A DNA stretch of 64,000 nucleotides from assembly GCA_032718475.1 (NCBI GenBank), contig JAUCBJ010005882.1:11281-75280 (forward strand), given 5' to 3'. Below, piece by piece: positions 4,008 through 57,044 of this stretch (position 1 is its first letter; every line of letters begins with the position of its first letter). The notes beneath the pieces were generated by a model. It was not told the origin of the DNA, ran no database searches, and saw nothing but the letters and a program-made list of their open reading frames with translations. The translations under genes and the position numbers were made by a program. The DNA is from Nemertoderma westbladi. Its lineage: Eukaryota; Animalia; Xenacoelomorpha.

Positions 4008-5119
4008 ATTGAAATTCATTGAAAACAAGTTTTCTTGTAAATAACTTGTGTAAAGGATGTCCTTAAAGCAAGAAAGTATCAATAAGTTTGAAAGTGTCAC
4101 CTGACATGTCAAGGAGCCGATGGTATAAGTTAAATAATTTGGGATCAAAACTTTAATAAAATTACATTCCGATAGAGTTAGCACAACCACCACCACCACC
4201 AGGGCACCAGCTCTACAAAATGGTGAATAATGAAATAAAAACCACCGGGAAGTTATGTTAAGATTATACAATGTTAATAATAAATTATATTATGGAATGT
4301 TTGAATCCATATCATCTCAAAATAAATTACCTCAAAATAATTATCCCTACTAATATAACTCTCTGATGAGAGTTTTAATAGTTCAATAGTTGAGAATATA
4401 AATATCGGTAATTTTACCAAGTGATGTGGGGCGAGTCAAAACTGCCACCCATCATCTAACTGTTAATAATTATACTATGGCCGTTTTCTAAAATTCTGTG
4501 TGTGTTGGAAGCTATAATATAACTAGCCATTGTATAATTATAATTGTTCGCTAAAAGACGACTTACATCTTTTGCTGCACGAAGGCTCGCCCCACTCGTG
4601 TTATAGTGCAGTAACAGGCTATCCTACTTAACCCACAGGAGTATTAATAGGGTAGAAGCGGGATTCAGTAATTAGCTTGGGGTGGGGGGTGGGGGGGTGG
4701 GTGGGTGGGTGAAAGGTTGAGTTTCGCAATTTTCCCCGCCCGCTCCGTCTATTACCCTTAAAGTATAAGGGTTAGGGATATTACTAGATGGAATGGACGG
4801 GAAGATGGGGGGGGGGGGGGGGGGGAGACAATACTAAAACAATACGGTCAGAAACCGTAGAATGGAAACATCCAAATAAAGTTAGCCAATGACAAGAGGG
4901 TTCATAGAGTACGAGTACACTGCAGTTGTGTGGTAAAACACTAAATCTCGAAAATAAGCGTTTAGAGAAAAATTCGAGAACATTTTTAAATAGTCAAGAT
5001 CGGGTGATTTTCATATCACAGGGAAGAGGAAAACTTATTTAATTAATTAATTTCCCTAATGGTTCTTCCACATTCTTGAAAACATGTCGCTTAAAGTTTA
5101 GGAAACGAACGTAACTCAC

Positions 5120-5342
5120 CACTTCCTGGTTGACGAGATGAGCCAAGAACCTAGAGGAAGACAGACTGGGGGTCTTTAGGTTCCGTCTGTAGCCTTTACG
5201 GAAGGTGAGAATCAGTCGCTTAACGACCAGTTCGCCAATCTGTGGAAACTTCGTGTTTATAACGGATACGAGAGCCGCGTAGACGTTAGTGAAGGTAGGT
5301 GAGGCTGACTGGGCCTGGATTACAGACCGGGAGAATAAACCT
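5120..5342 (-). CDS. CWC22: CWC22 exon 4 (MIF4G)
   Basis: ttccctgtag acceptor and GTG|gtgag donor. Encodes [74 protein letters not shown]. The 5' boundary assumes the most proximal acceptor is used. Confidence 0.93.
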
Positions 5343-5712
5343 CTACAGGGAAATAAAGCGGAGTTAGTGAAGGTAGGTGAGGCTGACTGGGCCTGGATTA
5401 CAGACCGGGAGAATAAACCTCTATAGGGAAATAAAGTGGAGTTAGTGAAGGTAGGTGAGGCTGACTGGGCCTGGATTACAGAGCGGGAGAATAAACCTCT
5501 ATAGGGAAATAAAGTGGAGTTAGAGAAGGTAGGTGAGACAGACTGGGCCTGGATTACAGATCGGGAGAATAAACCTCTATAGGGAAATAAAGTTGAGTTA
5601 GTGAAGGTAGGTGAGTCTGACTGAGCCTGGATTACAGACCGGGAAAATAAACCTCTATAGGGAAATAAAGTGGAGTTAGTGAAGGTAGGTGAGGCTGACT
5701 GGGCATGGATTA
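5285..5712 (-). repeat. 78-bp tandem repeat, proximal block (about 5.5 units, including the real exon-4 start)
   Basis: Unit on the minus strand is tccactttatttccctatag|AGGTTTATTCTCCCGGTCTGTAATCCAGGCCCAGTCAGCCTCACCTACCTTCACTAAC. The last unit runs directly into unique exon-4 sequence. Confidence 0.97.
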
Positions 5713-5999
5713 TATAAGCAGTAGGTAATTATTCTATAACACAATACAATCCTGTAATCCAGTGTATAATATTAGTAGTACAACAATCCAGCAATATTAT
5801 AATTAGTAATACAGCGGTACAATAATTAGGCAGAACAACCTCACTCTGCCAGCTTTACATGTAGGCCTAACCCTCCACCTGTCACACTGTACTGTACATC
5901 TGTATGTATCTCTTAACCTCAGTTCAGCCAGTCCGGTACCGGTACAACCCACATTCGTACATCCCTCTATTGGGCCATGGCCTCTTATTTCCCCTTATA
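5713..5999 (-). repeat. 3' LTR (287 bp)
   Basis: Bounded by TATAAG...CTTATA and immediately preceded on the minus strand by the polypurine tract GGGGGGAG (6007-6000). Confidence 0.75.
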
Positions 6000-6064
6000 C
6001 TCCCCCCAGTTCATTAATGAACTAATCTTGAATTGTCACACATGTGGAAATCATAATTTTACTT

Positions 6065-9000
6065 TCAGTTTATATTAATCCCATATCTCATAGGTGGTCT
6101 TGACACTCGTCCCGTACGCAATCTATAGTGCTCTCCTGGTTCTTCAACTGCGTTTGCATTGGTATAATCGACAGTTTCCTCCAAACTTTCATTTGCAACA
6201 ATATTATCTTCTTCATTTGAGCTAGATTCACTGTTACTATCACTATAATTCTGGTGTTGTACGGGTACTGTTGTGCAGTACTGAGCAGTACTGAGATTAT
6301 TTGGGCTTATCTGCCCACATTCCGCTTTCCTAATGTCTTGTATATGTCGCTTGTATCCACCTGCTATAACTGACCAAGAATCTGGAACCGCCTCAATTAT
6401 CAGTGGGCCTCTCCATTTTGTGTGGCACTTTACATGTTGTTTCGGCTTAATATATACAAATTCCCCAATTTTAAACTTATATTCCATTTCCGGTTCTGTT
6501 GCAATAACTTCCGTAACACCTGGTAATTTGGTGATATGATTTGAGGTAAGCAGTTCCCATGGTGACTTATTTCCATGTGATGCAGTCCTGTTATACCAAA
6601 AGGCAATTTGCGTGGGTTCTTTGCCTGTTCTTGCTGCCCATGTCTTAATAGTTCTATGGGATCTTTCAACTATATTCCCTTGTGGTCTATAAGTGCACGA
6701 GGTCCGGTGTTTAACTTCCCATTTTTCCAAAAATTGTTTTGTTTCTTTACTCCTAAAAGCGGGTCCATTATCAGACAATAACTCTTCTGGGGGCCCCCAC
6801 TCAACAAATACTTGCTGCAATTCCTTTATAACTGCCTCTGCAGTTTCTTTATTAACTTTACGCCATATAGTAAACCCGGTAGCGCAATCGACCATTGTCA
6901 GATATTGGTTTTTATTTTCATCCTCTGTGAAGTCAGTTGATAGTCTTTCCCACCCTCGCTCCATCTTACAAGTTCCTTTTTTCACTGCAGTAACAGGATT
7001 TGGATCTATGTATTTGCATTTATTACAGCTATTGCACACTTCTTTGACTAATTTCCTTGTCACATTCATTGTCTGTAATTCTCTAAGTGCTTAGGCTGTA
7101 GCGGAGTACCCTAAACTTTTAAATTGTGAACTAATTTTTAAATTTAATTATATTTTAACGCGATTTTAATTGAATATACTGCTGAAGACGCCCGCGAGGG
7201 TGAAATGGCCATACGGTAAATAATTAACTTCATTTTTTATATATCCACGTGGTGAAAGACCCTTCCTTGCCTTTATTAATCCTGTAATTATGAATACGCC
7301 ACGTAAAACGTTGTTCCGGTTAATCCAAAACCTAAGTTTATCGAATTCCGTATCATTGTTACATAACATTTGAGTACGATCCGTATCTGTATGAGCAATT
7401 TGATGAATCTCTTTAATTCTCTCAATCACGTGTGCTTTGTTGCAAGGAACATTGTGTGCTTGTATTCCTATTCCTGCTATTTCCCTTATGTTTTTATTTT
7501 CGTCATTCCCCTTTAACCATGATTTCGGAACTCTGGTTAAGCAATCTGCCAGGTTCTTAGCAGATGTAATTTGCTGTATTGTCACTTTTATGCCATATTC
7601 ATCCACCGTCCTCTTTAATAGCTATAATCGTCTTCTTATTAACATTTTTGATAGACCTTTTGTCTTCAAACGGTGCTCATCATTCAACATTGATTTGATC
7701 CAACCATATGCTGAGCTCGAATCTGTATATATCGTAATTGTTTTAAGACCCCACTCAATAGCAATGTTTAACCCCTCAATGATCGCAGTCAGTTCTGCCG
7801 CATTTATATGCTCAGGGTCATCGTCTTTTCTCAACCATGCTCTATCCTCGGCGACTACCCCACCAATCTTCACTAACGCCCCAATGGCTATTGTACTTGC
7901 GTCGGCCCATACTTCTCCTACGTGAGTCTTCATTATTGGCCACTGACCTTGTGAGGGATCTACTTTATTGACTCTATCTACCACCTCAATGAGTTTCTTT
8001 CTAGTGTTCTCACTGATAGGATCATCCATGCTAACTGATGATTATTGGCGTTGTAGCCACCCACATGCAACGCGCAACCAACCAGAAATTAAATAATTAC
8101 CTCGGAGTTGACCAATCACAGCCAATAATTTTCGATGGGTCACTATCCCTTGAATAGATTCTATTGTCGGTAAATCGCTGTCTCTGATCCATCGACCATC
8201 CTTCACATACACTCCCAATATTCGAGCCCCATTTTTAACCTCCACTGGTTCTTTAGATTCAAGCCCAAATTTCTTCAAATGATTTCTAACATCATCAGCT
8301 GTAATTCCAGAATCCAGGTCCACATAGACATCATCACGGAAACTTTCTGTGGCTCTCTCAATCTTCTCGTCTTGTTTTAGCACAGTCTCTACAATATTGT
8401 CAAGTATCTTTGGTGCTGGGCCCAGTCCAAAACCAAGCTTGGTCATACAATATCGTTTGTCCTTATACTCAACAACTTGGTATGGATGCAGTTTAGAATG
8501 CACATTGACCTGCATATAGGCCCACTTCAAGTCAATCAGTGCTGTCCTTTCACCCATGGTAGCCCACTTTCTCAGTTTCTCAACACTGGTAGCTGATTCC
8601 GTTCAAGGTTCATTTATAATAAATTGATTCAATTTTCGAAAATCCATTATCGGACGTACTCGATCTTTTTTGGTTCATTTTTGTACATTAGAGGAATGAG
8701 TGCTTTTGTTTCCCCGTGAAATTCTTTTAACCATTCACCCATGCCAATATCAAACTTCTCCCGTAGTTCCTGGGGAATTTTGTATTGCTTTACTCTATTA
8801 GTCAGTTTGTCTGGGTTTTGTCCAGTGATGAATATATACTCTGTTTCCCATTATATTGAGATTGTAATCAAAGCTTCAGGATTAATATTTCCAACTGCAC
8901 TCATTAATTGTAAATTTGGGACTGAATTAAACAGCACACTAACAGTGTCTTTCGGCCCACATTGAATGGAGATCCCCCCCATTTTTTTTATAATGTTCCA

Positions 9001-9342
9001 TCCTATAACTAAGTCTAAGCCCCCAACCATGTCTACAATAACTAAAAATTCACATTTAGGCAAAGTGACATTATTAATTCTAATTTGTGTTTCAATTGTC
9101 CCCATAATCATATCTGTTTTTGTACCATCTAACATTGAAATAGTGTTTCCAGCCATCTTTCGATCTAAAATCCCATTAATCCTAGCACTACATTTATGTG
9201 AGACAATCGACTGCCTACAACCAGTATCTATTAACCCATCTACTGCAATTCCACCACATTCTGCCTTTATAATTGGCAGATCGCCCATTATTTTAGGGAA
9301 ACGGCCACTAGCGCATATGCCGTTCCCCTCTACTCGTTTCCC
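6065..9342 (-). pseudogene. pol: Retrotransposon pol (protease, RT, RNase H, DDE integrase) broken by stops, frameshifts and an insertion
   Basis: Protease LIDTGC (8851-9288). RT IDLKWAYMQ, LGFGL and FRDD (8042-8557). RNase H WADAS, AAEL and YTDS (7622-8029). Integrase STDF, SDNGPAF and VERSHRT (6065-7069). Confidence 0.92.
7094..7332. mobile_element. About 240-bp secondary insertion in the integrase zinc-binding region
   Basis: Non-coding block separating H..AH (7400s) from C..C (7030s) of the integrase HHCC motif, flanked by CTTAGG...CCTAAG. Confidence 0.5.
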
Positions 9343-10330
9343 TAGCTCTGTAGCCTTCCACTTGGCCGCATGGAACTATCTGCTCCAGTATGTTTGCAGT
9401 ACAGTTGCGAGCTATGTAGTCTGGTCCTCCACATCTAAAACAATTACTGGCAATCGAATCCCTATAGTTGTGGTAACTTGATTCTCCCCAACATTCTCGT
9501 GCATAATGTCCACTTTTTCCACATCTGAAGCAGTTAATCCCAAATCCTTGGCCTCGACCCCGGGATATATTTACTTGCCCTCGGCCAATTCTGAAATTTC
9601 CTCCATCTCTACCACGACCAGTTGTAAGATTGCCTATCTCTCGTCCCCGACCGAAACTTGTCCCATCTCGCTCTCGATGGAAACTTCCACCTCCTCGGGG
9701 ATTTTGGAAATTTCCAGGAAATCCTCCAGCAGCTCCAACAGATCCAATTGGATACGGTAGGCCGACAACTAATCCCCCTGCAGCTCCTACGGTGCCAGAA
9801 TCCTTATGTTGTTCTGACAATAATCTGCGGGCCTGAACAATTAGATTGTTCAGTTCCAATCCATCAACTAAAGCTTTGACCTCCCCAGCTATCCTTTCAG
9901 GAAGAACACTGACGAACTGCAGAGCAATAATTATATTAGCTACAACTGTCTCTACCGCGTTTAGTTTTATTTCATCAGACACTAATCCAAACAGTCGTTT
10001 TAAATCGGCTAGGTACGTATCCGCTGCCTCCCCATCCTGCAGTTTCCGTATCTTAAACAGTTCGTAGGCAGTATACTCGCTAACAGCAAATGCAGATATT
10101 AATGCCTTCTTTATTAGGTCACAATCTTGCTTTTCGGCGTTAGATAACTGACTCACTACTTCATACGCTGACCCATCTAACGACAATCGTAAATAAGTTG
10201 CCCGCGCCTCCTCTTTTAATCCAGCCTCGACCACTAATACATCATAAGTGTCATTAAATATCGCCAGCCACTGACTCGGATCTGTACTACCATTATACTT
10301 CTTAACATCATCTGAGAGTTTTGGAGCCAT
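9308..10330 (-). CDS. gag: Retrotransposon Gag with CCHC zinc knuckles
   Basis: 340-aa ORF containing CFRCGKSGHYAREC and a degenerate second knuckle CFRCGGPDYIARNC. The C-terminus is probably frameshifted. Confidence 0.88.
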   Translation of the reverse strand: MAPKLSDDVKKYNGSTDPSQWLAIFNDTYDVLVVEAGLKEEARATYLRLSLDGSAYEVVSQLSNAEKQDCDLIKKALISAFAVSEYTAYELFKIRKLQDGEAADTYLADLKRLFGLVSDEIKLNAVETVVANIIIALQFVSVLPERIAGEVKALVDGLELNNLIVQARRLLSEQHKDSGTVGAAGGLVVGLPYPIGSVGAAGGFPGNFQNPRGGGSFHRERDGTSFGRGREIGNLTTGRGRDGGNFRIGRGQVNISRGRGQGFGINCFRCGKSGHYARECWGESSYHNYRDSIASNCFRCGGPDYIARNCTANILEQIVPCGQVEGYRARETSRGERHMR

Positions 10331-10333
10331 GTT

Positions 10334-10345
10334 GCCCGGTTAGCT
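10334..10345 (-). promoter_or_regulatory. Putative primer-binding site AGCTAACCGGGC
   Basis: Directly abuts the 5' LTR. Its complement GCCCGGTTAGCT resembles the first 12 nt of eukaryotic tRNA-Lys (GCCCGGNTAGCT). Confidence 0.55.
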
Positions 10346-10552
10346 TATAAGATATAATAAGTAATATCAATCGTAATATCATTAATATCAATCACACACT
10401 ACTCCAGAATCAGGTTTATATTAACTCCTGCACTCAATACACCACCGGTAGGCCTACTCAGTCGTTCCACCCTAACTATCTACCTGTTTTAATTTACCGC
10501 CACCTTATATATATCGCAACTCAACCCACAGAGTCTCTTATTGTACCTTATA
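10346..10552 (-). repeat. 5' LTR (207 bp) with TATA box
   Basis: Bounded by TATAAG...CTTATA. TATATATAAGG at about 10513-10503 on the minus strand. Followed by a 15-nt leader and the gag ATG. Confidence 0.7.
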
Positions 10553-13500
10553 GATTACAGACCGGGAGAATAAACCTCTATAGGGAAATAAAGTGGAGTT
10601 AGTGAAGGTAGGTGAGGCTGGCTGGGCCTGGATTACAGATCGGGCGAATAAACCTCAATATGGAAATAAAGTGGAGTTAGTGAAGGTAGGCGAGACTGAC
10701 TGGGCCTGGATTACAGAGCGGGCGAATAAACCTCTACAGGGAAATAAAGTGGAGTTAGTGAAGGTAGGTGAGGCTGGCTGGGCCTGGATTACAGATCGGG
10801 CGAATAAACCTCTATAGGGAAATAAAGTGGAGTTAGTGAAGGTAGGTGAGGCTGACTGGGCCTGGATTACAGATCGGGCGAATAAACCTCTATAGGGAAA
10901 TAAAGTGGAGTTAGTGAAGGTAGGTGAGGCTGACTGGGCCTGGATTACAGATCGGGCGAATAAACCTCTATAGGGAAATAAAGTGGAGTTAGTGAAGGTA
11001 GGTGAGGCTGACTGGGCCTGGATTACAGATCGGGCGAATAAACCTCTATAGGGAAATAAAGTGGAGTTAGTGAAGGTAGGTGAGGCTGGCTGGGCCTGGA
11101 TTACAGATCGGGCGAATAAACCTCTATAGGGAAATAAAGTGGAGTTAGTGAAGGTAGGTGAGGCTGGCTGGGCCTGGATTACAGATCGGGCGAATAAACC
11201 TCTATAGGGAAATAAAGTGGAGTTAGTGAAGGTAGGTGAGACTGGCTGGGCCTGGATTACAGATCGGGCGAATAAACCTCTATAGGGAAATAAAGTGGAG
11301 TTAGTGAAGGTGGGTGAGGCTGGCTGGGCCTGGATTACAGATCGGGCGAATAAACCTCTATAGGGAAATAAAGTGGAGTTAGTGAAGGTAGGTGAGACTG
11401 GCTGGGCCTGGATTACAGATCGGGCGAATAAACCTCTATAAGGAAATAAAGTGGAGTTAGTGAAGGTAGGTGAGGCTGGCTGGGCCTGGATTACAGATCG
11501 GGCGAATAAACCTCTATAGGGAAATAAAGTGGAGTTAGTGAAGGTAGGTGAGACTGGCTGGGCCTGGATTACAGATCGGGCGAATAAACCTCTATAGGGA
11601 AATAAAGTGGAGTTAGTGAAGGTAGGTGAGGCTGGCTGGGCCTGGATTACAGACCGGGAGAATAAACCTCTACAGGGAAATAAAGTAGAGTTAGTGAAGG
11701 TAGGTGAGGCTGACTGGGCCTGGATTACAGACCGGGAGAATAAACCTCTATAGGGAAATAAAGTGGAGTTAGTGAAGGTAGGTGAGCCTGACTGGGCCTG
11801 GATTACAGACCGGGAGAATAAACCTCTATAGGGAAATAAAGTAGTGTTAGTGAAGGTAGGTGAGGCTGACTGCGCCTGGATTACAGACCGGGAGAATAAA
11901 CCTCTATAGGGAAATAAAGTGGAGTTAGTGAAGGTAGGTGAGGCTGACTGGGCCTGGATTACAGATCGGGCGAATAAACCTCTACAGGGAAACAAAGTGG
12001 AGTTAGTGAAGGTAGGTGAGGCTGACTGGGCCTGGATTACAGACCGGGAGAATAAACCTCTATAGGGAAATAAAGTGGAGTTAGTGAAGGTAGGTGAGGC
12101 TGACTGGGCCTGGATTACAGATCGGGCGAATAAACCTCTACAGGGAAACAAAGTGGAGTTAGTGAAGGTAGGTGAGGCTGACTGGGCCTGGATTACAGAG
12201 CGGGCGAATAAACCTCTACAGGGAAACAAAGTGGAGTTAGTGAAGGTAGGTGAGGCTGACTGGGCCTGGATTACAGACCGGGAGAATAAACCTCTACAGG
12301 GAAATAAAGTAGAGTTAGTGAAGGTAGGTGAGGCTGACTGGGCCTGGATTACAGAGCGGGCGAATAAACCTCTATAGGGAAATAAAGTGGAGTTAGTGAA
12401 GGTAGGTGAGCCTGACTGGGCCTGGATTACAGACCGGGAGAATAAACCTCTATAGGGAAATAAAGTAGTGTTAGTGAAGGTAGGTGAGGCTGACTGCGCC
12501 TGGATTACAGACCGGGAGAATAAACCTCTACAGGGAAACAAAGTGGAGTTAGTGAAGGTAGGTGAGGCTGACTGGGCCTGGATTACAGATCGGGCGAATA
12601 AACCTCTACAGGGAAACAAAGTGGAGTTAGTGAAGGTAGGTGAGGCTGACTGGGCCTGGATTACAGACCGGGAGAATAAACCTCTACAGGGAAATAAAGT
12701 AGAGTTAGTGAAGGTAGGTGAGGCTGACTGGGCCTGGATTACAGAGCGGGCGAATAAACCTCTATAGGGAAATAAAGTGGAGTTAGTGAAGGTAGGTGAG
12801 GCTGACTGGGCCTGGATTACAGAGCGGGCGAATAAACCTCTATAGGGAAATAAAGTGAGTTAGAGAAGGTAGGTGAGGCTGGCTGGGCCTGGATTACAGA
12901 CCGGGAGAATAAACCTCTATATAGGGAAATAAAGTGAGTTAGAGAAGGTAGGTGAAGCTGACTGGGCCTGGATTACAGACCGGGAGAATAAACCTCTATA
13001 GGGAAACAAAGTGGAGTTAGTGAAGGTAGGTGAGGCTGACTGGGCCTGGATTACAGACCGGGAGAATAAACCTCTATAGGGAAATAAAGTGGAGTTAGTG
13101 AAGGTAGGTGAGACAGACTGGGCATGGATTATAGAGCGGGAGAATAAACCTCTATAGGGAAATAAAGTGGAGTTAGTGAAGGTAGGTGAGGCTGACTGCG
13201 AGCCTGGATTACAGAGCGGGCGAATAAACCTCTATAGGGAAATAAAGTAGAGTTAGTGAAGGTAGGCGAGACAGACTGGGCATGGATTACAGACCGGGAG
13301 AATAAACCTCTATAGGGAAATAAAGTGGAGTTAGTGAAGGTAGGTGAGGCTGACTGCGAGCCTGGATTACAGAGCGGGCGAATAAACCTCTATAGGGAAA
13401 TAAAGTGGAGTTAGAGAAGGTAGATGAGGCTGACTGCGAGCCTGGATTACAGAGCGGGCGAATAAACCTCTATAGGGAAATAAAGTGGAGTTAGTGAAGG

Positions 13501-14420
13501 TAGGTGAGGCTGACTGGGCCTGGATTACAGACCGGGAGAATAAACCTCTATAGGGAAATAAAGTGGAGTTAGTGAAGGTAGGTGAGGCTGACTGGGCCTG
13601 GATTACAGAGCGGGCGAATAAACTTCTATAGGGAAATAAAGTGGAGTTAGTGAAGGTAGGTGAGGCTGACTGGGCCTGGATTACAGACCGGGAGAATAAA
13701 CCTCTATAGGGAAATAAAGTAGAGTTAGTGAAGGTAGGCGAGACAGACTGGGCATGGATTACAGACCGGGAGAATAAACCTCTATAGGGAAATAAAGTGG
13801 AGTTAGTGAAGGTAGGTGAGGCTGACTGCGAGCCTGGATTACAGAGCGGGCGAATAAACCTCTATAGGGAAATAAAGTGGAGTTAGAGAAGGTAGATGAG
13901 GCTGACTGCGAGCCTGGATTACAGAGCGGGCGAATAAACCTCTATAGGGAAATAAAGTGGAGTTAGTGAAGGTAGGTGAGGCTGACTGGGCCTGGATTAC
14001 AGACCGGGAGAATAAACCTCTACAGGGAAATAAAGTAGAGTTAGTGAAGGTAGGTGAGGCTGACTGGGCCTGGATTACAGACCGGGAGAATAAACCTCTA
14101 TAGGGAAATAAAGTGGAGTTAGTGAAGGTAGGTGAGGCTGACTGGGCCTGGATTACAGACCGGGAGAATAAACCTCTACAGGGAAATAAAGTAGAGTTAG
14201 TGAAGGTAGGTGAGGCTGACTGGGCCTGGATTACAGACCGGGAGAATAAACCTCTATAGGGAAATAAAGTGGAGTTAGTGAAGGTAGGTGAGGCTGACTG
14301 GGCCTGGATTACAGACCGGGAGAATAAACCTCTATAGGGAAATAAAGTGGAGTTAGTGAAGGTAGGCGAGACAGACTGGGACTGGATCAAAGACCGGATC
14401 AAGTCAATCCCTGGGGAATT
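10553..14420 (-). repeat. 78-bp tandem repeat, distal block (about 49 units)
   Basis: Same unit as 5285-5712, near-identical copies. The outermost copy (about 14352-14420) is diverged and is preceded by unique intronic sequence ttatttaattccccag. Confidence 0.97.
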
Positions 14421-14567
14421 AAATAAGATAATATTAAAAGCATATAAACTATTTAGAAATTAAATAGAACTCTTGAAATTCCAAATAGTAACTGCCAAGA
14501 ATAGACAATTTTTAAATGTCAGTTTAAAATAATATAAAAAAAAATAATTATATATAAATAAACTCAC

Positions 14568-14696
14568 CTGCCACGGATAATGTTCTCTTGAAACAGTTCC
14601 TTAACGATCTCAATAATATTAGATATATTGATTTTGTTAATTAAACCGTGGATAGATTTACGGAGGGCCTCCCACGACAGGCGCTGGTACAAAGCG
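14568..14696 (-). CDS. CWC22: CWC22 exon 3 (start of MIF4G domain)
   Basis: ttttcag acceptor and AG|gtgag donor. Encodes [43 protein letters not shown]. Confidence 0.95.
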
Positions 14697-16910: not shown

Positions 16911-17282
16911 CTGGACTTGTCGGACGCATCTGTTTGCAGAGCCCGTAGACGATGGGGCGGGATATAGGCGCCGCCAATGAGGCCAGACAGAGTCTCTGAG
17001 CTCGGTGTGGGTCGGGCTGCCGTAACAGACGAGGTGGCAGCAGTCTGTCCACTGGGACCAGAACCAGAAGCAGCTATGGGATCTGGAACATTTTCTCTAG
17101 GGAGGCTTACATTAGATAGTCCTTTGACCTCTTCACTTGCCTCCCCTGTTTTAGACATCATCGTTGATTGATCTTCGACTGCATCGCCGACTTCCGAACC
17201 TTTACTTCCGATTTCCCCATCTTCTGGTTCAGATGAATGTTCCGAAACAGATTGTTCGGCCATAGAACTGGCACTGGAAGAG
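16911..17282 (-). CDS. CWC22: CWC22 exon 2
   Basis: tttag acceptor and AG|gtttgt donor. Encodes ...IGGAYIPPHRLRALQTDASDKS, matching the conserved CWC22 motif GGAYIPP.(K/R)LR...TDK. Confidence 0.9.
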
Positions 17283-22468: not shown

Positions 22469-24690
22469 CGGTCCTACTAATTACCCCAACCTACCCCAAC
22501 CTACCACAAACTACCACAATCTACCACAATCTACCCCAACAATTCGATACAGGCATCTAATTACCACAATGTTATTTTACAATGGCATCTAATTACCACA
22601 ATATACAGAACTCAAGTGTCTATTTACCACAAGACTACACTGCATCTAATTACCACAATATTATTTTACAATGGCATCTAATTACCACAATATACAGAAC
22701 GCAAGTGTCTAATTACCACAAGACTATACTGCGTCTAATTACCACAATCTATTTACGAACAAGACTACACTGCACACTGCATCTAATTACCACAATATTA
22801 TTTTCCAATGGCATCTAATTACCACAATATACAGAACGCAAGTGTCTAATTACCACAAGACTATACTGCGTCTAATTACCACAACACTATACTGCGTCTA
22901 ATTACCACAACACAACACTGCGTCTAATTACCACAATCTATTTACCACAAGACTACACTGCATCTAATTACCACAATATTATTTTACAATGGCATCTAAT
23001 TACCACAATATACAGAACGCAAGTGTCTAATTACCACAAGACTATACTGCGTCTAATTACCACAACACTATACTGCGTCTAATTACCACAACACAACACT
23101 GCGTCTAATTACCACAATCTATTTACCACAAGACTACACTGCATCTAATTACCACAATATTATTTTACAATGGCATCTAATTACCACAATATACAGAATG
23201 CAAGAGTGTCTAATTACCACAAGACTATACTGCGTCTAATTACCACAATCTATTTACCACAAGACTACACTGCATCTAATTACCACAATATTATTTTACA
23301 ATGGCATCTAATTACCACAATATACAGAATACAAGTGTCTAATTACCACAACACTATACTGCGTCTAATTACCACAATCTATTTACCACAAGACTACACT
23401 GCATCTAATTACCACAATATTATTTTACAATGGCATCTAATTACCACAATATACAGAACGCAAGTCTCTAATTACCACAACACTATACTGCGTCTAATTA
23501 CCATACCACAACGCTATACTGCGTCTAATTACCACAACACAACACTGCGTCTAATTACCACAATCTATTTAAGAACAAGACTACACTGCACACTGCATCT
23601 AATTACCACAATATTATTTTACAATGGCATCTAATTACCACAATATACAGAACGCAAGTGTCTAATTACCACAAGACTATACTGCGTCTAATTACCACAA
23701 CACTATACTGCGTCTAATTACCACAATCTATTTACCACAAGACTACACTGCATCTAATTACCACAATATTATTTTACAATGGCATCTAATTACCACAATA
23801 TACAGAACGCAAGTGTCTAATTACCACAAGACTATACTGCGTCTAATTACAACAAGACTATACTGCGTCTAATTACCACAAGACTATACTGCGTCTAATT
23901 CCACAATCTATTTACCACAAGACTACACTGCATCTAATTACCACAATAATATTTTACAATGGCATCTAATTACCGCAATATACAGAATGCAAGTGTCTAA
24001 TTACCACAACACTATACTGCGTCTAATTACCACAATCTATTTACCACAAGACTACACTGCATCTAATTACCACAATATTATTTTACAATGGCATCTAATT
24101 ACCACAATATACAGAACGCAAGTCTCTAATTACCACAACACTATACTGCGTCTAATTACCACAATCTATTTACCACAAGACTATACTGCATCTAATTACC
24201 ACAATATTATTTTACAATGGCATCTAATTACCACAATATACAGAACGCAGTGTCTAATTACCACAAGACCACACTGCATCTACTGTAATTACCACAATAT
24301 ACAGAATGCAAGAGTGTTTAATTACCACAATATACAGTACGGTAGTTATTAATATTCAGTGTCTAATTACCGCAAAACTTCACTAACGTCTAATTACCAC
24401 AATATACAGAACTCAAGTGTCTAATCACGGGTAGGACTAAAAACCCAAACGGACCCAAACGGTACCCAAACGAACCCAAACGGTGGAATACGGAGTTATA
24501 TCAACAGATGTTATAGTTGCCACAACGGGGAAACAATTATACGATTATATGAAATCATAATTACAGTAATGCAGCTTTTTGTGTTTTACATTCATGAAGA
24601 ACACAAAAAACGGTGCCAAGCCCGTATAAATGCAGAGGCTCATCTATCAACCACGCTACTTTACACGTATATGATATACAATAGACATCA
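22469..24690 (+). repeat. Left inverted arm built of TCTAATTACCACAA-cored subrepeats
   Basis: Dozens of TCTAATTACCACAA cores with a few recurring spacers in higher-order units, then a unique GGGTAGGACTAAAAACCC block. Mirrored at 28866-30719. Confidence 0.92.
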
Positions 24691-28865: not shown

Positions 28866-30719
28866 CATAATGATGTCCATTGTATATCATATACGTGTAA
28901 AGTAGCGTGGTTGATAGATGAGCCTCTGCATTTATACGGGCTTGGCACCGTTTTTTGTGTTCTTCATGAATGTAAAACACAAAAAGCTGCATTACTGTAA
29001 TTATTTTTCGTATAATCGTATAATTGTTTCCCCGTTGTGGCAACTATAACATCTGTTGATATAACTCCGTATTCCACCGTTTGGGTTCGTTTGGGTACCG
29101 TTTGGGTCCGTTTGGGTTTTTAGTCCTACCCGTGATTAGACACTTGAGTTCTGTATATTGTGGTAATTAGACGTTAGTGAAGTCTTGCGGTAATTAGACA
29201 CTGAATATTAATAACTACCGTACTGTATATTGTGGTAATTAGACACTCTTGCATTCTGTATATTGTGGTAATTAGATGCCATTGTAAAATAATATTGTGG
29301 TAATTAGATGCAGTGTAGTCTTGTGGTAAATAGATTGTGGTAATTAGACGCAGTATAGTGTTGTGGTAATTAGACGCAGTATAGTCTTGTGGTAATTAGA
29401 CACTTGCGTTCTGTATATTGTGGTAATTAGATGCCATTGTAAAATAATATTGTGGTAATTAGATGCAGTGTGCAGTGTAGTCTTGTTCGTAAATAGATTG
29501 TGGTAATTAGACGCAGTGTTGTGTTGTGGTAATTAGACGCAGTATAGCGTTGTGGTAATTAGACGCAGTATAGTCTTGTGGTAATTAGACACTTGCGTTC
29601 TGTATATTGTGGTAATTAGATGCCATTGTAAAATAATATTGTGGTAATTAGATGCAGTGTAGTCTTGTGGTAAATAGATTGTGGTAATTAGACGCAGTGT
29701 TGTGTTGTGGTAATTAGACGCAGTATAGTGTTGTGGTAATTAGACGCAGTATAGTCTTGTGGTAATTAGACACTCTTGCGTTCTGTATATTGTGGTAATT
29801 AGATGCCATTGTAAAATAATATTGTGGTAATTAGATGCAGTGTAGTCTTGTGGTAAATAGATTGTGGTAATTAGACGCAGTGTTGTGTTGTGGTAATTAG
29901 ACGCAGTATAGTGTTGTGGTAATTAGACGCAGTATAGTCTTGTGGTAATTAGACACTCTTGCATTCTGTATATTGTGGTAATTAGATGCCATTGTAAAAT
30001 AATATTGTGGTAATTAGATGCAGTGTAGTCTTGTGGTAAATAGATTGTGGTAATTAGACGCAGTGTTGTGTTGTGGTAATTAGACGCAGTATAGTGTTGT
30101 GGTAATTAGACGCAGTATAGTCTTGTGGTAATTAGACACTCTTGCATTCTGTATATTGTGGTAATTAGATGCCATTGTAAAATAATATTGTGGTAATTAG
30201 ATGCAGTGTAGTCTTGTGGTAAATAGATTGTGGTAATTAGACGCAGTGTTGTGTTGTGGTAATTAGACGCAGTATAGTGTTGTGGTAATTAGACGCAGTA
30301 TAGTCTTGTGGTAATTAGACACTCTTGCATTCTGTATATTGTGGTAATTAGATGCCATTGTAAAATAATATTGTGGTAATTAGATGCAGTGTAGTCTTGT
30401 GGTAAATAGATTGTATTAATTAGACGCAGTGTTGTGTTGTGGTAATTAGACGCAGTATAGTGTTGTGGTAATTAGACGCTGTATAGTATTGTGGTAATTA
30501 GACACTTGCGTTCTGTATATTGTGGTAATTAGATGCGCAGTTAGTCTTGTGGTAAATAGACACTTGCGTTCTGTATATCATGTATATTGTGGTAATTAGA
30601 TGCCATTGTAAAATAATATTGTGGTAATTAGATGCCTGTATCGAATTATTGGGGTAGATTGTGGTAGATTGTGGTAGTTTGTGGTAGGTTGGGGTAGGTT
30701 GGGGTAATTAGTAGGACCC
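28866..30719 (-). repeat. Right inverted arm
   Basis: Reverse complement of the left arm (TTGTGGTAATTAGA cores) with a different subrepeat number. Confidence 0.92.
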
Positions 30720-46943: not shown

Positions 46944-48140
46944 TGAGGGTTGTGTGCCAGGTGAGGGGAAGGGGCCAGGGTTGTGTGCCAGGTGAGGGGA
47001 AGGGGCCAGGGTTGTGTGCCAGGTGAGGGGAAGGGGCCAGGGTTGTGTGCCAGGTGAGGGGAAGGGGCCAGGGTTGTGTGCCAGGTGAGGGGAAGGGGCC
47101 AGGGTTGTGTGCCAGGTGAGGAGAAGGGGCCAGGGTTGTGTGCCAGGTGAGGGGAAGGGGCCAGGGTTGTGTGCCAGGTGAGGGGAAGGGGCCAGGGTTG
47201 TGTGCCAGGTGAGGAGAAGGGACCAGGGTTGTGTGCCAGGTGAGGAGAAGGGACCAGGGTTGTGTGCCAGGTGAGGAGAAGGGGCCAGGGTTGTGTGCCA
47301 GGTGAGGAGAAGGGGCCAGGGTTGTGTGCCAGGTGAGGAGAAGGGACCAGGGTTGTGTGCCAGGTGAGGAGAAGGGAGCAGGGTTGTGTGCCAGGTGAGG
47401 AGAAGGGAGCAGGGTTGTGTGCCAGGTGAGGAGAAGGGACCAGGGTTGTGTGCCAGGTGAGGAGAAGGGACCAGGGTTGTGTGCCAGGTGAGGAGAAGGG
47501 ACCAGGGTTGTGTGCCAGGTGAGGAGAAGGGGCCAGGGTTGTGTGCCAGGTGAGGAGAAGGGGCCAGGGTTGTGTGCCAGGTGAGGAGAAGGGGCCAGGG
47601 TTGTGTGCCAGGTGAGGAGAAGGGGCCAGGGTTGTGTGCCAGGTGAGGAGAAGGGACCAGGGTTGTGTGCCAGGTGAGGAGAAGGGACCAGGGTTGTGTG
47701 CCAGGTGAGGAGAAGGGACCAGGGTTGTGTGCCAGGTGAGGAGAAGGGACCAGGGTTGTGTGCCAGGTGAGGAGAAGGGGCCAGGGTTGTGTGCCAGGTG
47801 AGGAGAAGGGGCCAGGGTTGTGTGCCAGATGAGGAGAAGGGACCAGGGTTGTGTGCCAGATGAGGAGAAGGGACCAGGGTTGTGTGCCAGATGAGGAGAA
47901 GGGACCAGGGTTGTGTGCCAGATGAGGAGAAGGGACCAGGGTTGTGTGCCAGGTGAGGAGAAGGGACCAGGGTTGTGTGCCAGATGAGGAGAAGGGACCA
48001 GGGTTGTGTGCCAGATGAGGAGAAGGGACCAGGGTTGTGTGCCAGATGAGGAGAAGGGACCAGGGTTGTGTGCCAGGTGAGGAGAAGGGACCAGGGTTGT
48101 GTGCCAGGTGAGGAGAAGGGACCAGGGTTGTGTGACAGAT
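46944..48140 (+). repeat. 31-bp G-rich tandem repeat (about 38 copies)
   Basis: Unit CCAGGGTTGTGTGCCAGGTGAGGAGAAGGG(G/A). One inverted copy lies at 46915-46943. Confidence 0.96.
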
Positions 48141-51924: not shown

Positions 51925-52945
51925 GGCGTTAGTCTTGGTGTAGACTATAGAGTGGTACACTGCGTGACGTTAGTGTTGGTGTAGACTGGTACACTTCGAG
52001 ACGTTACTGTTGGTGTAGACTGGTACACTGGTAGACCTTAGTGTTGGTGTAGACTGGTACACTGCGAGACGTTAGTGTTGGTGTAGACTGGTACACTGAG
52101 AGACTTTTGTGTTGGTGTAGACTGGTACACTGAAGAGACTTTAGTGTTGGTGTAGACTGGTACACTGAGAGACTTTAGTGTTGGTTTAGACTGGTACACT
52201 GCGATACGTTAATGTCGGTGTAGACTGGAACACTGCGAGACTTTAATGTTGGTGTAGACTGGTACACTTCGAGACGTTACTGTTGGTGTAGACTGGTACA
52301 CTGGTAGACCTTAGTGTTGGTGTAGACTGGTACACTGCGAGACGTTAGTGTTGGTGTAGACTGGTACAATGCGATACGTTAACGTTGGTGTAGACTGGTA
52401 CACTGCGAGACTTTAATGTTGGTGTAGACTGGTACACTGGGCGACGTTAGTGTTGGTGTAGACTGGTACACTGCGAGACGTTAGTGTTGGTGTAGACTGG
52501 TACACTGAGAGACTTTTGTGTTGGTGTAGACTGGTACACTGAGAGACTTTAGTGTTGGTGTAGACTGGTACACTGAGAGACTTTAGTGTTGGTTTAGACT
52601 GGTACACTGCGATACGTTAATGTCGGTGTAGACTGGAACACTGCGAGACTTTAATGTTGGTGTAGACTGGTACACTGGGAGACGTTAGTGTTGGTGTAGA
52701 CTGGTACAATGAGAGACTTTAGTGTTGGTGTAGACTGGTACACTGAGAGACGTTAGTGTTGGTGTAGACTGGTACAATGCGATACGTTAATGTTGGTGTA
52801 GACTGGTATACTGCGAGACTTTAATGTTGGTGTAGACTGGTACACTGGGGACGTTAATGTAGACTGGTACACTGTGAGACGTTAATGTAGACTGGTACTA
52901 CACTGAGAGACTTTTGTGTTGGTGTAGACTGGTACACTGAGAGGC
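51925..52945. repeat. 34-bp tandem repeat (about 29 copies)
   Basis: Unit GTTAGTGTTGGTGTAGACTGGTACACTGCGAGAC with variant positions. Confidence 0.95.
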
Positions 52946-54025: not shown

Positions 54026-54817
54026 CTATAACAAGGGAACGCAAACAAACATGGTGAGAGGCTCGCTAGTCGTTATAGTAACACTCGAATCAACAACAAC
54101 ATTTGATGTAGACACAAGTTCCCCGAATGCCAGCCTGTGATTGGTCAAATTCCACTTTAGCCCTGTTGTTGTGACAGACTTACAGGGAGAGCCAATGGGC
54201 ATTAGGGCGCAAATGTTACCCTGACAACCATCCAGCATTACGACATGACTTCCTCGATCTAAGTTAAATAGGATAGAGTTGTTACCATAAATATATACCG
54301 AAATATTATGGTTTTCTAGAATAGAATTAGCGAGATACAGGTTGTGAATATGGTCCATGGTGTGATCTAATCTGCCGACCGCTTTATCGCAAAGTACGTA
54401 GATGCTGTTTACATTGAGGTTCCGTCGCTGGATTTCTTTACACATATGCTGCAACGCTTTAGTGAAATCAGTGGTATCATCGTCTAATACCTTAATCAAA
54501 GGCACCCCCAATAGTGAAAAATAGGAACTGGCCTCTTCGGTTATCGAATCTAAATCACCAATAATAAAGTCTGGGATGTACGGCATTGGGGCGTCGTGAG
54601 TTCCTTCTAACTCTTTGTTTAAACTCATGAGATGGTCGGCTGAGCCGTCTGCTACTCCAACAATGAGGGATCGTTCCCACAGGAATCGCAGAGAGCGTTG
54701 AATGTGTTTGAGGGGGGCGTTAAGTAAGATTAGAGTGAATTCCTTGGACTCGAATGGTTCGTTTAGGTCAACAACAGGGGTCCACATGCGAACGGGAGTA
54801 TCAGTTGCATCCGCCAT
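54026..54817 (-). CDS. TPK1: Thiamine pyrophosphokinase 1, intronless
   Basis: Motifs ADGSA, PDFIIGDLDSI, DDTTDFTKAL, GRLDHT and VTTTGLKWNL...FGELVSTSN. Confidence 0.95.
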   Translation of the reverse strand: MADATDTPVRMWTPVVDLNEPFESKEFTLILLNAPLKHIQRSLRFLWERSLIVGVADGSADHLMSLNKELEGTHDAPMPYIPDFIIGDLDSITEEASSYFSLLGVPLIKVLDDDTTDFTKALQHMCKEIQRRNLNVNSIYVLCDKAVGRLDHTMDHIHNLYLANSILENHNISVYIYGNNSILFNLDRGSHVVMLDGCQGNICALMPIGSPCKSVTTTGLKWNLTNHRLAFGELVSTSNVVVDSSVTITTSEPLTMFVCVPLL

Positions 54818-55607
54818 TGTTACTGATGATTTATAATTTTGTTTTGTTGAATTAATGATAAAGTTGACAATGATACAGTAGAGTTGTAGTGCACGTGAGT
54901 AACTAATTAATTAATGTACATAATTAATCAACTTAAGCAAAATTAGTAATTAAACTGTAACATGCGACAATTTTTGGAGATACGCATCCATCAAACAAAT
55001 ACGTTACATACGTATTAGATTAACAACCCTCAACCCCCCCCCCCCCCCCCTCACGTACGGATATTATGGCAATTTACAACAAACTCTCTTAACTTGAAAG
55101 TCTTTTTTTTCTATTAACGTTACCGGTTTGGGGCGGCATGTTGGGGGATTTCTACCATATGGTACTTTACCTCCCCAGAGAATGTACCAACCAAGTTATG
55201 AAATAGGGAACGTTTACTGACTGAATGGATGCTTTCCTTCTCCCATTTGATTTTATACCAATCATATTGTGTATCGTGTTCCATAAAACTATAACATTTG
55301 TTAGACGTAAAAACAACCATCACCATACGGACGTACGGTACGTACATTGGTACATACAATAAGCAAATAAGGCCCATGTGAAGAATACTAGAGGTTTTAT
55401 CTTTTCTGACGAAATTTTATTGAAACTTTATGAAGAATGTATTTTTTTTCAATGTCTCCTTATTAAATATTTTAAAACGTGGGGCTAAATTGCAAAGTGA
55501 AATAAAACAAATAAAATAAAACTGCTGAAAGTCTGGTATGGTATACTTTTCTCATGGGCCGAAAATGAGGTAACCCTAGACTACCCCCCCCCCCCCCCCC
55601 AAACGCG

Positions 55608-57044
55608 TTATCTGGACAACTTTGGCCCAGGCGGAGGCAACATCGGTCTAACTACAGCGTCCCACTCGCTCAACCAATCAGACCACGAACTGGACCGAAC
55701 CCCGTGCCCCAGTTCCTCCAACAAAGACGACGTTTCGACCGGAAATCCGGCTAGTAAGTCAACCAACTGTTCGGCGAGTTGCGCGGATTCACGGAAGACC
55801 AGCCCATTGCGACCGTGGTCCACCAACTCCGGTAGACAACCGAAAGATACCGCGCAAACCGGTAGACCGCAGCCAAACATATCGACCACCTTCATCGGTA
55901 AATCCAGCCCACTGGAGGACAGATGGAGACTGACGCCTACATCAGCAGAACCCAGGAGCTTAGGGTATTCTTCAGTCTCCAACCAAGGAGTACAGAAAGT
56001 AACATTCTGTAAGTTTAGTTTATCGATTTCCTCTTCATAATACGACTTTAGAGGGCCTTTACCTGTGATCACGCATAACACCTTAGGTAATTTACCCTCA
56101 TACTCGTTTGAACTACAGATTGCGTCGTAGATTGCCATGGCTTTAAGTAGAATTGAGAAATCCTCATCTGGCGTCCAACTAGTACTGCTGATAACCATGG
56201 CTGGTCTATCTGATCTCACAGATACATCAGTACCGGCACCGTAAGTCGACGTTGTGAATAGATTACCATCTGTTCCATCGATGCATTTAAACTCATTGTA
56301 AGAATGCTTTAATTTTTCAAACAATTTGTGTTTTTCTTTGATGTTTGTTCTTGAAAAGTTCGCGTACGGTCTATCATACAATACTGTAGTATTATGATTT
56401 TGGCGGAGTTCAATTCCGTTTTCTTTTAAATGAACGCTCATTGCCTTGGTAACACAAATATTAAGATAAACACGCCGTCCAATAAAATATTCTATTCCGG
56501 CGGATATACGAACAAACGGGTGCCGTTTGCCCAATGACAACGCCAGAATCGAATGACCCAAATTGTGCCAATCGATGACCAATGGGCAGCCGTAAAATAT
56601 AGAGGCGATGGCGACTACAGGAAGTATTGGGATGGAAGGTGGATTCTGAACAAGAATAAACTCGGGCGATGGAATACAAAACATAAATGAACGAACCAGT
56701 TGTAAGGCCAAGAGAACCGTTTTATAAACGTAATTGGAAATCTGTGCAATACCATTCGTAACATTTTTTGTTGAGACACTTTCGATTGGCATAATAATGA
56801 TAGAAGGATTTGAGCCCACATCCTTAATTGGATTCGATTCCATGTAACCAATCAAGGTAACACGGTACCCTGCCCTAGCTAAGGCGACTGCATGGTACTG
56901 TGTTCGAGGACTTCTACCAATATCTCCAAGAACAACAACACAAACATTATTTCCTCGAACACAATTTCTTTTGTAAATAAATAGTGTCAATAACAGAGTA
57001 ATGAGGAATAAACAAAAAACAACAGCACATTCGATTACTCCCAT
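55608..57044 (-). CDS. ALG1: Chitobiosyldiphosphodolichol beta-1,4-mannosyltransferase, intronless
   Basis: N-terminal TM segment. Motifs VVLGDIGRSPRTQYHA, QNPPSIP, IDWHN, SSTSWTPDEDF and SSSGLDLPMKVVDMFGCGLPV. Confidence 0.97.
   Translation of the reverse strand: MGVIECAVVFCLFLITLLLTLFIYKRNCVRGNNVCVVVLGDIGRSPRTQYHAVALARAGYRVTLIGYMESNPIKDVGSNPSIIIMPIESVSTKNVTNGIAQISNYVYKTVLLALQLVRSFMFCIPSPEFILVQNPPSIPILPVVAIASIFYGCPLVIDWHNLGHSILALSLGKRHPFVRISAGIEYFIGRRVYLNICVTKAMSVHLKENGIELRQNHNTTVLYDRPYANFSRTNIKEKHKLFEKLKHSYNEFKCIDGTDGNLFTTSTYGAGTDVSVRSDRPAMVISSTSWTPDEDFSILLKAMAIYDAICSSNEYEGKLPKVLCVITGKGPLKSYYEEEIDKLNLQNVTFCTPWLETEEYPKLLGSADVGVSLHLSSSGLDLPMKVVDMFGCGLPVCAVSFGCLPELVDHGRNGLVFRESAQLAEQLVDLLAGFPVETSSLLEELGHGVRSSSWSDWLSEWDAVVRPMLPPPGPKLSR

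Follow-up and report, generated by a model that had tools for sequence, protein, structure and literature searches.

The window analysed here, a 64,000-nucleotide stretch of a Nemertoderma westbladi contig, carries on its minus strand a CWC22 gene with a tandem repeat of an intron end and exon start. Five exons are predicted. The first coding exon, from a predicted ATG at 17263, spans 16911–17263; it is followed by exons at 14568–14696, 5120–5342, 2452–2587 and 4–220, after which the gene runs past the window. The limits of the first and last of these were predicted from sequence only. The five exons join to 352 residues without a stop, and an RNA contig has a leader about 390 nt longer than the predicted 5' end, by its record coordinates. 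The donor of the exon upstream of the array (14568–14696, GT at 14567) matches the consensus at 9 of 9 positions, and the four donors of the gene at 7 to 9; GT sites within the repeat unit match at 4 to 6. The exon after the array (5120–5342, donor GT at 5119) forms part of the MIF4G domain and matches human CWC22 with an E value of 5e-30; the best of the protein matches listed show no more than 76% identity across it. The initial annotation was right to assign it to CWC22 but numbered it exon 4 (and the one before it exon 3); counting from the ATG at 17263, it comes third among the coding exons.

Structure of the array

The intron between these two exons contains 54 repeat units of about 78 bp and one decayed edge copy, giving 55 anchored segments. 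Each unit consists of a 20 nt acceptor followed by 58 nt of exon start; 47 units are 78 nt long, five are 80 nt, and one each is 79 and 77 nt. Identity to the unit consensus averages 96.6%, with a minimum of 93.6%. The count agrees with the approximately 55 copies of a 78-bp unit first proposed. The claim that only the final unit continues into the remainder of the exon (5342–5120) also holds; unit 54 contributes the first 58 nt of that exon as its coding portion. Tandem Repeats Finder (TRF) reported 49.2 copies at 10553–14397 (score 6672) and 5.5 copies at 5285–5712 (score 772), both far above chance expectation. YAG is present in 53 of the 54 units, having been lost from the unit at 10656, so that 52 AG-bearing decoy units lie upstream of the last acceptor. 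The unit length is divisible by three and the unit is open in frame.

All parts of the array lie on the minus strand. The edge copy, unit 0 (14352–14440), retains its own acceptor, with the AG ending at 14411, and has a stop two codons past the join. The upstream block (10553–14351), delimited by TRF and the anchored segments, holds units 1 to 48 and the 5' half of unit 49; the downstream block (5363–5712) holds the 3' half of unit 49 and units 50 to 53, whose acceptors at 5655, 5577, 5499 and 5421 are in frame and stop-free. The spacer of unit 54 (5343–5362) is the 3' splice site used in the spliced contig described below. CACTAAC had been described as branch-point-like, but it does not derive from the intron: it belongs to the exon's own codons, a Phe-Thr-Asn stretch at the tail of each preceding unit. 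The CTAAC closing unit 53 (5363–5367), which starts 25 nt before the exon, is predicted to act as branch point for the acceptor that is used. The amino acid at the unit end is His in 116 of 117 matched proteins (a mammal-heavy set, 120 examined) and Asn here; the idea that homogenisation forced the branch-point motif into the protein was rejected, since 19 of 150 diverse representatives also carry Asn.

The array is not the single uninterrupted block from 5285 to 14420 that was originally described. Of that 9,136-bp span, 4,840 bp are an overlooked retrotransposon within unit 49 (5713–10552, on the same strand as CWC22), and the repeat proper measures 4,227 bp. The element encodes a gag zinc knuckle, protease, reverse transcriptase, RNase H and integrase in the order typical of Ty3/gypsy elements (Pfam zf-CCHC, Asp_protease, RVT_1 below cut-off, RNase_H and rve), and is flanked on both sides by the 5-bp sequence TAATC. 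It is a broken LTR retrotransposon: self-alignment found no matching LTR pair, the terminal regions being dissimilar with only the last few bases in common, and its end-to-end alignments gave no self-match and nothing better than E 0.09 among those listed.

The 5' part of the intron is unique sequence, and in 26 of 126 diverse CWC22 matches intron-like sequence runs up to the same boundary. On this reading the intron appears to predate the repeat, and creation of the intron by tandem duplication was ruled out on the same two grounds.

DNA and RNA sequencing evidence

Short-read DNA contigs from two studies covered the unit at approximately 24 to 79 times the depth of the flank (four bins, 5296–5371). 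Summed contig depths vary between runs and do not equal copy numbers. DNA runs of the two studies contain unit-unit junctions, the unit 0 junction (run X1) and element junctions, including the 3' junction of the retrotransposon (run X3); one DNA run may have supplied the assembly itself. The exact copy number is that of the assembly, and no individual read was found to cross the whole array, as would be compatible with an assembly artefact. Such an artefact is nevertheless extremely improbable given the 31 distinct segment sequences, arranged as ordered variants, and the high depth and junctions in the DNA runs of both studies.

Splicing was read from one contig of run X4, 2,559 nt in length with a depth of 544 and no mismatches, in which 14568 is spliced to 5343, and 5120 to 2587. 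Its two loose ends correspond to the 3' end of the exon at 14568–14696 and the start of the exon at 2452–2587. None of the runs listed as containing the sequence is recorded as RNA; X4 is labelled 'DNA?' and is read here as RNA because no intron bin is covered and the contig is spliced at both ends. The contig is continuous through the shared 58 nt and is the sole X4 record on 4840–5400; no spacer-bearing contigs were found in this one run of assembled contigs, from which rare or NMD-degraded isoforms drop out. This supports the first suggestion that normal CWC22 is made by skipping more than 50 near-identical acceptors, at least in the main isoform of this run, the contig passing over 52 AG-bearing decoys. 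A search for CWC22 proteins of the organism with a 26-residue insert gave none among the best 120 of 602 matches, a set from which its own CWC22 is also absent.

Decoy acceptors and variation among units

Use of any of the four nearest decoys (5655, 5577, 5499 or 5421) would insert 26 to 104 residues in frame and without a stop, and would therefore trigger no NMD. Leaky, unregulated use of this kind, in which a few transcripts would encode CWC22 with extra residues in the MIF4G domain as a mildly harmful burden, fits the near-identity of these acceptors to the used one, and one repeat unit of the human ABCA7 VNTR is reported to be retained at low level (PMC5954066). The resulting exons would, however, measure 301 to 535 nt against the normal 223 nt, and the main X4 contig is unbroken through the shared 58 nt with no spacer contig beside it, so we regard such leakage as unlikely. 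A further point in its favour is a weak excess of synonymous alleles among the units (9 of 18 in the exon-derived part; one-sided p 0.03–0.07 depending on transition weight, post hoc), which could reflect some selection on the reading frame.

Each unit also carries AGGT 2 nt in (TAG-AG-GT), with a donor match of 5/9. In sequence terms, splicing to a decoy followed by splicing from its AG-GT to the corresponding AG in the final unit would restore the exact normal mRNA for 51 of the 52 upstream AG acceptors, and human UBC is described as using tandem AGGT sites of dual specificity (PMC10809524). This outcome is automatic for any tandem copy with AGGT, though, and the donor is weak, the second step requires a GAG acceptor 2 nt after TAG, and no intermediate was found among the contigs. 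Such a two-step rescue, whose end product would be indistinguishable from that of direct splicing, is highly improbable.

Neighbouring units are more alike than distant ones (0 of 5,000 permutations as extreme), and block duplications occur within the array; a rank test of distance against difference across all units did not reach significance (rho 0.06; 134 of 2,000). The variants among the units show ordinary minisatellite turnover, and this pattern of near-unit likeness, duplicated blocks and a decayed edge is reported for the amphioxus globin gene BflGb6 (PMC3087553; PMC3902484). Extra conservation of the splice signals was sought across the units and none was significant, the AG and CTAAC positions being variable at 1 of 7 sites versus 22 of 71 elsewhere (Fisher p 0.67, with little power). 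Nor does RNA structure appear to hide the decoys, as a three-unit fold was no better than shuffled sequences (z -1.11; 31 of 200 as good).

The array was initially proposed as a possible autoregulatory or copy-number-tuned decoy. In such a device the acceptors would bind U2AF/U2 or be used occasionally to give unproductive CWC22 mRNA, with feedback through CWC22 or EJC levels. An AG, and CTAAC at a fitting distance, are kept in 52 decoys, and every acceptor upstream of the element reaches a stop on read-through, with no good donor within the units. Such a loop is conceivable, as CWC22, which deposits eIF4A3, is required for NMD (PMC11703147), and the length of the ABCA7 VNTR is reported to correlate with exon skipping (PMC5954066). 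Against this, the four nearest decoys lack the premature stop of a poison element, the signals show no significant extra conservation, no spacer-bearing contig is present in X4, and a broken retrotransposon interrupts the array. CWC22 moreover acts once the acceptor has already been chosen. The same layout is found in globin, Adh3, troponin C and PGBD5, genes unrelated to splicing (PMC3087553; PMC3902484), and no paper on a CWC22 repeat or CWC22 autoregulation is among the literature matches listed. Autoregulation is without support in the present data, and we consider it quite unlikely.

Comparison with known boundary repeats and interpretation

Tandem repeats across an intron/exon boundary are known from amphioxus as 'mirages', in the globin genes BflGb6 and BflGb9, Adh3, troponin C and PGBD5. 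Of these, BflGb6 shares the polarity of the CWC22 array, an intron 3' end with an exon start. In mirages, as here, most units carry the signals, the mRNA is normal, and the interior is homogenised with a diverged edge (PMC3087553; PMC3902484). By the definition in PMC3087553, the CWC22 array is a boundary-spanning, head-to-tail repeat with YAG in 53 of 54 units; normal mRNA is made from the authentic site, on one spliced contig and for the main isoform only; and the near-far test (0 of 5,000) and the decayed unit 0 indicate concerted evolution with a diverged edge, although the rank test across all units did not reach significance. That definition further includes length differences among alleles or individuals. 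The CWC22 array has 54 units, whereas BflGb6 has 3 to 6 and PGBD5 no more than 7 (PMC3087553; PMC3902484). Unlike the amphioxus mirages, the CWC22 array is split by a 4.8-kb retrotransposon, has an open unit that is a multiple of three, and lies in a gene for a core spliceosome factor. The CWC22 array is thus probably a large further case of a kind already described in lancelets.

Related arrangements have been described in human genes. In CBS 844ins68 an intron/exon junction is likewise duplicated, and splicing takes place at the downstream site, so that the exon copy before it is lost with the intron, but there is a single extra copy rather than a tandem array (PMC2630376). The 37-bp VNTR in IVS7 of F7 (PMC1557585) and the 25-bp VNTR of ABCA7 (PMC5954066) also repeat a real splice site, with the copy beside the exon body being used; these repeat the donor, whereas the CWC22 array repeats the acceptor, and no effect like that linking ABCA7 VNTR length to exon skipping was seen here. 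The tandem units of UBC each carry AGGT, as do those of CWC22, but are coding and variably included, while the CWC22 units are intronic in the RNA seen (PMC10809524).

The array is thus very probably a mirage-type minisatellite of 54 tandem copies of the CWC22 intron end and exon start, most likely neutral and tolerated, with the last copy used in the RNA examined. Of the options first put forward, neutral expansion tolerated through exon definition fits best with the contig joining 14568 to 5343, the lack of significant signal conservation, the element within the array and the published layout. A 78-bp segment straddling a long-standing intron/exon boundary would have been duplicated, the array would have grown by unequal crossing-over or slippage, and a retrotransposon would later have inserted into one unit. 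The last acceptor is likely favoured by exon definition because it alone lies at the normal 223 nt from the exon donor with the rest of the exon after it; its branch point would be supplied by the exon-derived CTAAC of unit 53, and the upstream copies, with no good donor close by, would be discarded as intron. Mirages are reported to leave splicing undisturbed (PMC3087553; PMC3902484), and CBS 844ins68 splices at the distal site (PMC2630376). Were the array to contract to its decayed first copy, the allele would be null, and retention of one or more extra copies is therefore probably obligatory.

The CWC22 array is a large natural case in which the spliceosome selects one of 53 near-identical 3' splice sites, and its variant-tagged units offer a ready substrate for distinguishing exon definition from 3' scanning. 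It also presents a hazard for annotation, as in-frame open units could pass as coding repeats. That the array functions as a splicing device, in which low, CWC22-sensitive decoy use gives products repaired through AG-GT or lost, so that CWC22 dose, and with it EJC loading and NMD strength, depends on the number of copies, is very unlikely. If regulated use were true, it would be a novel case of repeat copy number tuning a factor that controls NMD and EJC deposition.

The CWC22 gene and its intronic array

Five exons of CWC22 were located on the minus strand (17263-16911, 14696-14568, 5342-5120, 2587-2452 and 220-4), and their joined translation is stop-free over 352 residues. The exon at 5342-5120 was identified by its match to human CWC22 (E 5e-30), by a Pfam MIF4G match under the family cut-off, and by a contig from run X4, a sequencing run read here as RNA; the other four were placed from sequence, with the 3' end of 14696-14568 and the start of 2587-2452 coinciding with the loose ends of the X4 contig. 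If two internally repetitive algal gene models are set aside, the best named proteins among the matches listed were from animals, which makes an animal host likely. The intron ahead of exon 5342-5120 measures 9,225 nt, comprising a 157-nt unique start, a decayed edge copy (unit 0) and 54 tandem units, for which TRF reported a 78-bp period in two blocks of 49.2 and 5.5 copies. Each unit joins the intron's last 20 nt to the exon's first 58 nt, and YAG is present in 53 of the 54. The initial annotation correctly recognized the repeat, but more than half of the span it assigned to the array is not repeat, as a 4,840-bp insert had been overlooked. The CACTAAC that it read as branch-point-like is made up of codons of the exon itself, at the end of the preceding unit.

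The insert (10552-5713) lies inside unit 49, is flanked by TAATC at both sides, and carries broken frames for gag, protease, RT, RNase H and integrase, the Ty3/gypsy order. Its two ends (approximately 207 and 287 bp) showed no mutual alignment beyond the same few bases at start and end. The insert may be a chimera; alternatively, two insertions in the same phase of different units may later have recombined, and the apparent target-site duplication would then derive from the repeat itself. An AT-rich stretch of approximately 250 bp (about 7090-7340), possibly a nested insert, interrupts it close to where the integrase region begins.

Presence of the array and choice of acceptor

Four runs were compared with positions 4840-5400: three DNA runs from two studies, one of which may be the assembly's own source, and X4. 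In all three DNA runs the summed contig depth of the unit was approximately 24 to 79 times that of the flank (four bins, 5296-5371), which shows many copies, though it gives no copy number. A unit-to-unit junction and the 3' junction of the insert were recovered in run X3, and the unit 0 junction in run X1. The array is real, well formed and large; no read crossing the whole of it was seen, and the count of 54 units is that of the assembly.

X4 is labelled "DNA?" and was read as RNA on the grounds that no intron bin was covered and the only matching record was spliced. This 2,559-nt contig (depth 544) matched 5119-5344 with zero mismatches, and no spacer-bearing X4 contig was found on 4840-5400. 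Because the contig is spliced to the last acceptor and no spacer contig was found, the main mRNA passes over 52 AG-bearing decoys and unit 0, bearing out the earlier proposal that more than 50 near-identical acceptors are skipped. Contigs lose rare forms, so this result holds for the main isoform, and minor or degraded isoforms may exist.

Exon definition would select the last site. The donor of the exon lies 223 nt from acceptor 5343. Scored against the donor consensus, GT dinucleotides within the unit agree at only 4-6 of 9 positions, the four donors of the gene at 7-9 of 9. RNA folding received no support as the reason for site choice. Since each unit spans 26 codons and stays open in the CWC22 frame, use of the four decoys 3' of the insert, with predicted exons of 301-535 nt, would produce in-frame insertions of 26-104 residues with no premature stops. 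Reading on from any acceptor 5' of the insert, or from that of unit 0, meets a stop. Were the array to collapse onto unit 0, the stop would fall two codons past the join, so that the array likely could not contract to nothing.

On paper, a decoy could also be used in a two-step route, in which the AG|GT within each unit restores the normal mRNA. In sequence terms this would succeed for 51 of the 52 decoys, but such restoration is automatic for any tandem copy containing AGGT, and the route itself is very unlikely.

Age of the intron and other features of the window

Homologue comparison indicates that the intron is older than the repeat. Among 126 homologue matches with enough upstream sequence, 89 continue as RGR-G; manual reading of the remaining 37 gave 26 cases of intron read-through ending at this intron/exon boundary, nine coding-motif variants and two models skipping the previous exon. 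Three CWC22 gene models (P0001 and P0002, both named Closterium, and P0121) contain duplicated exon-sized pieces that look like boundary repeats or local duplications annotated as exons.

Elsewhere in the window, a 31-bp satellite of 38.5 copies (46946-48138), approximately 150 bp past an intronless LRR-type ORF, carries a donor-like CAG|GTGAG on the plus strand in most units, with its left-edge unit inverted; no exon was linked to it. On the minus strand, a 34-bp satellite of about 30 copies (51948-52943) has CACTAAC followed by CAG, with no coding exon evident after it. Two complex arrays (22482-24337 and 29230-30706) share a short unit in opposite orientation and similar flanking short repeats, resembling both ends of one large inverted-repeat element. 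Long uninterrupted minus-strand ORFs encode a thiamine pyrophosphokinase (54026-54910), an ALG1-like group 1 glycosyltransferase (55608-57119), and a coiled-coil protein that fell into no clear Pfam family (59834-62068).

Turnover, selection and comparable systems

Growth of the array would have proceeded by unequal exchange. The array shows block duplications and has a decayed copy at its edge; among 47 units of 78 nt, neighbouring units were more similar than distant ones (0 of 5,000 permutations as extreme), and the overall rank correlation between distance and difference was not significant (134 of 2,000). It is very unlikely that the units serve as regulated decoys. One of seven positions in AG and CTAAC varied, against 22 of 71 elsewhere (p 0.67, with low power). 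Within the exon-derived stretch of the same 47 units, 9 of the 18 variant alleles are synonymous, against 27-31% expected (one-sided p 0.03-0.07). This excess counts against a purely neutral reading, and may stem from old alleles of the real exon spread into the array. A proposal that the protein had the branch motif imposed on it was ruled out, Asn being found at that position in 19 of 150 diverse homologues.

CWC22 acts in EJC loading and NMD, according to PMC11703147; among the literature matches listed, none reported a CWC22 repeat or CWC22 autoregulation. In BflGb6 (PMC3087553), the 3' end of an intron and the beginning of the following exon are tandemly duplicated in 3-6 units, with concerted evolution that excludes the edges and undisturbed splicing. 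PGBD5, Adh and troponin C are given as further "mirage" cases, tandem repeats across an intron/exon boundary, in PMC3902484, and in human CBS 844ins68 the distal site is used (PMC2630376). The F7 and ABCA7 repeats are donor-side counterparts of the acceptor-side CWC22 array; in ABCA7, exon skipping follows repeat length, which makes it the strongest precedent for an influence of length. The layout of the array is already known as the mirage kind, of which CWC22 is a large case, and the array is most likely neutral.
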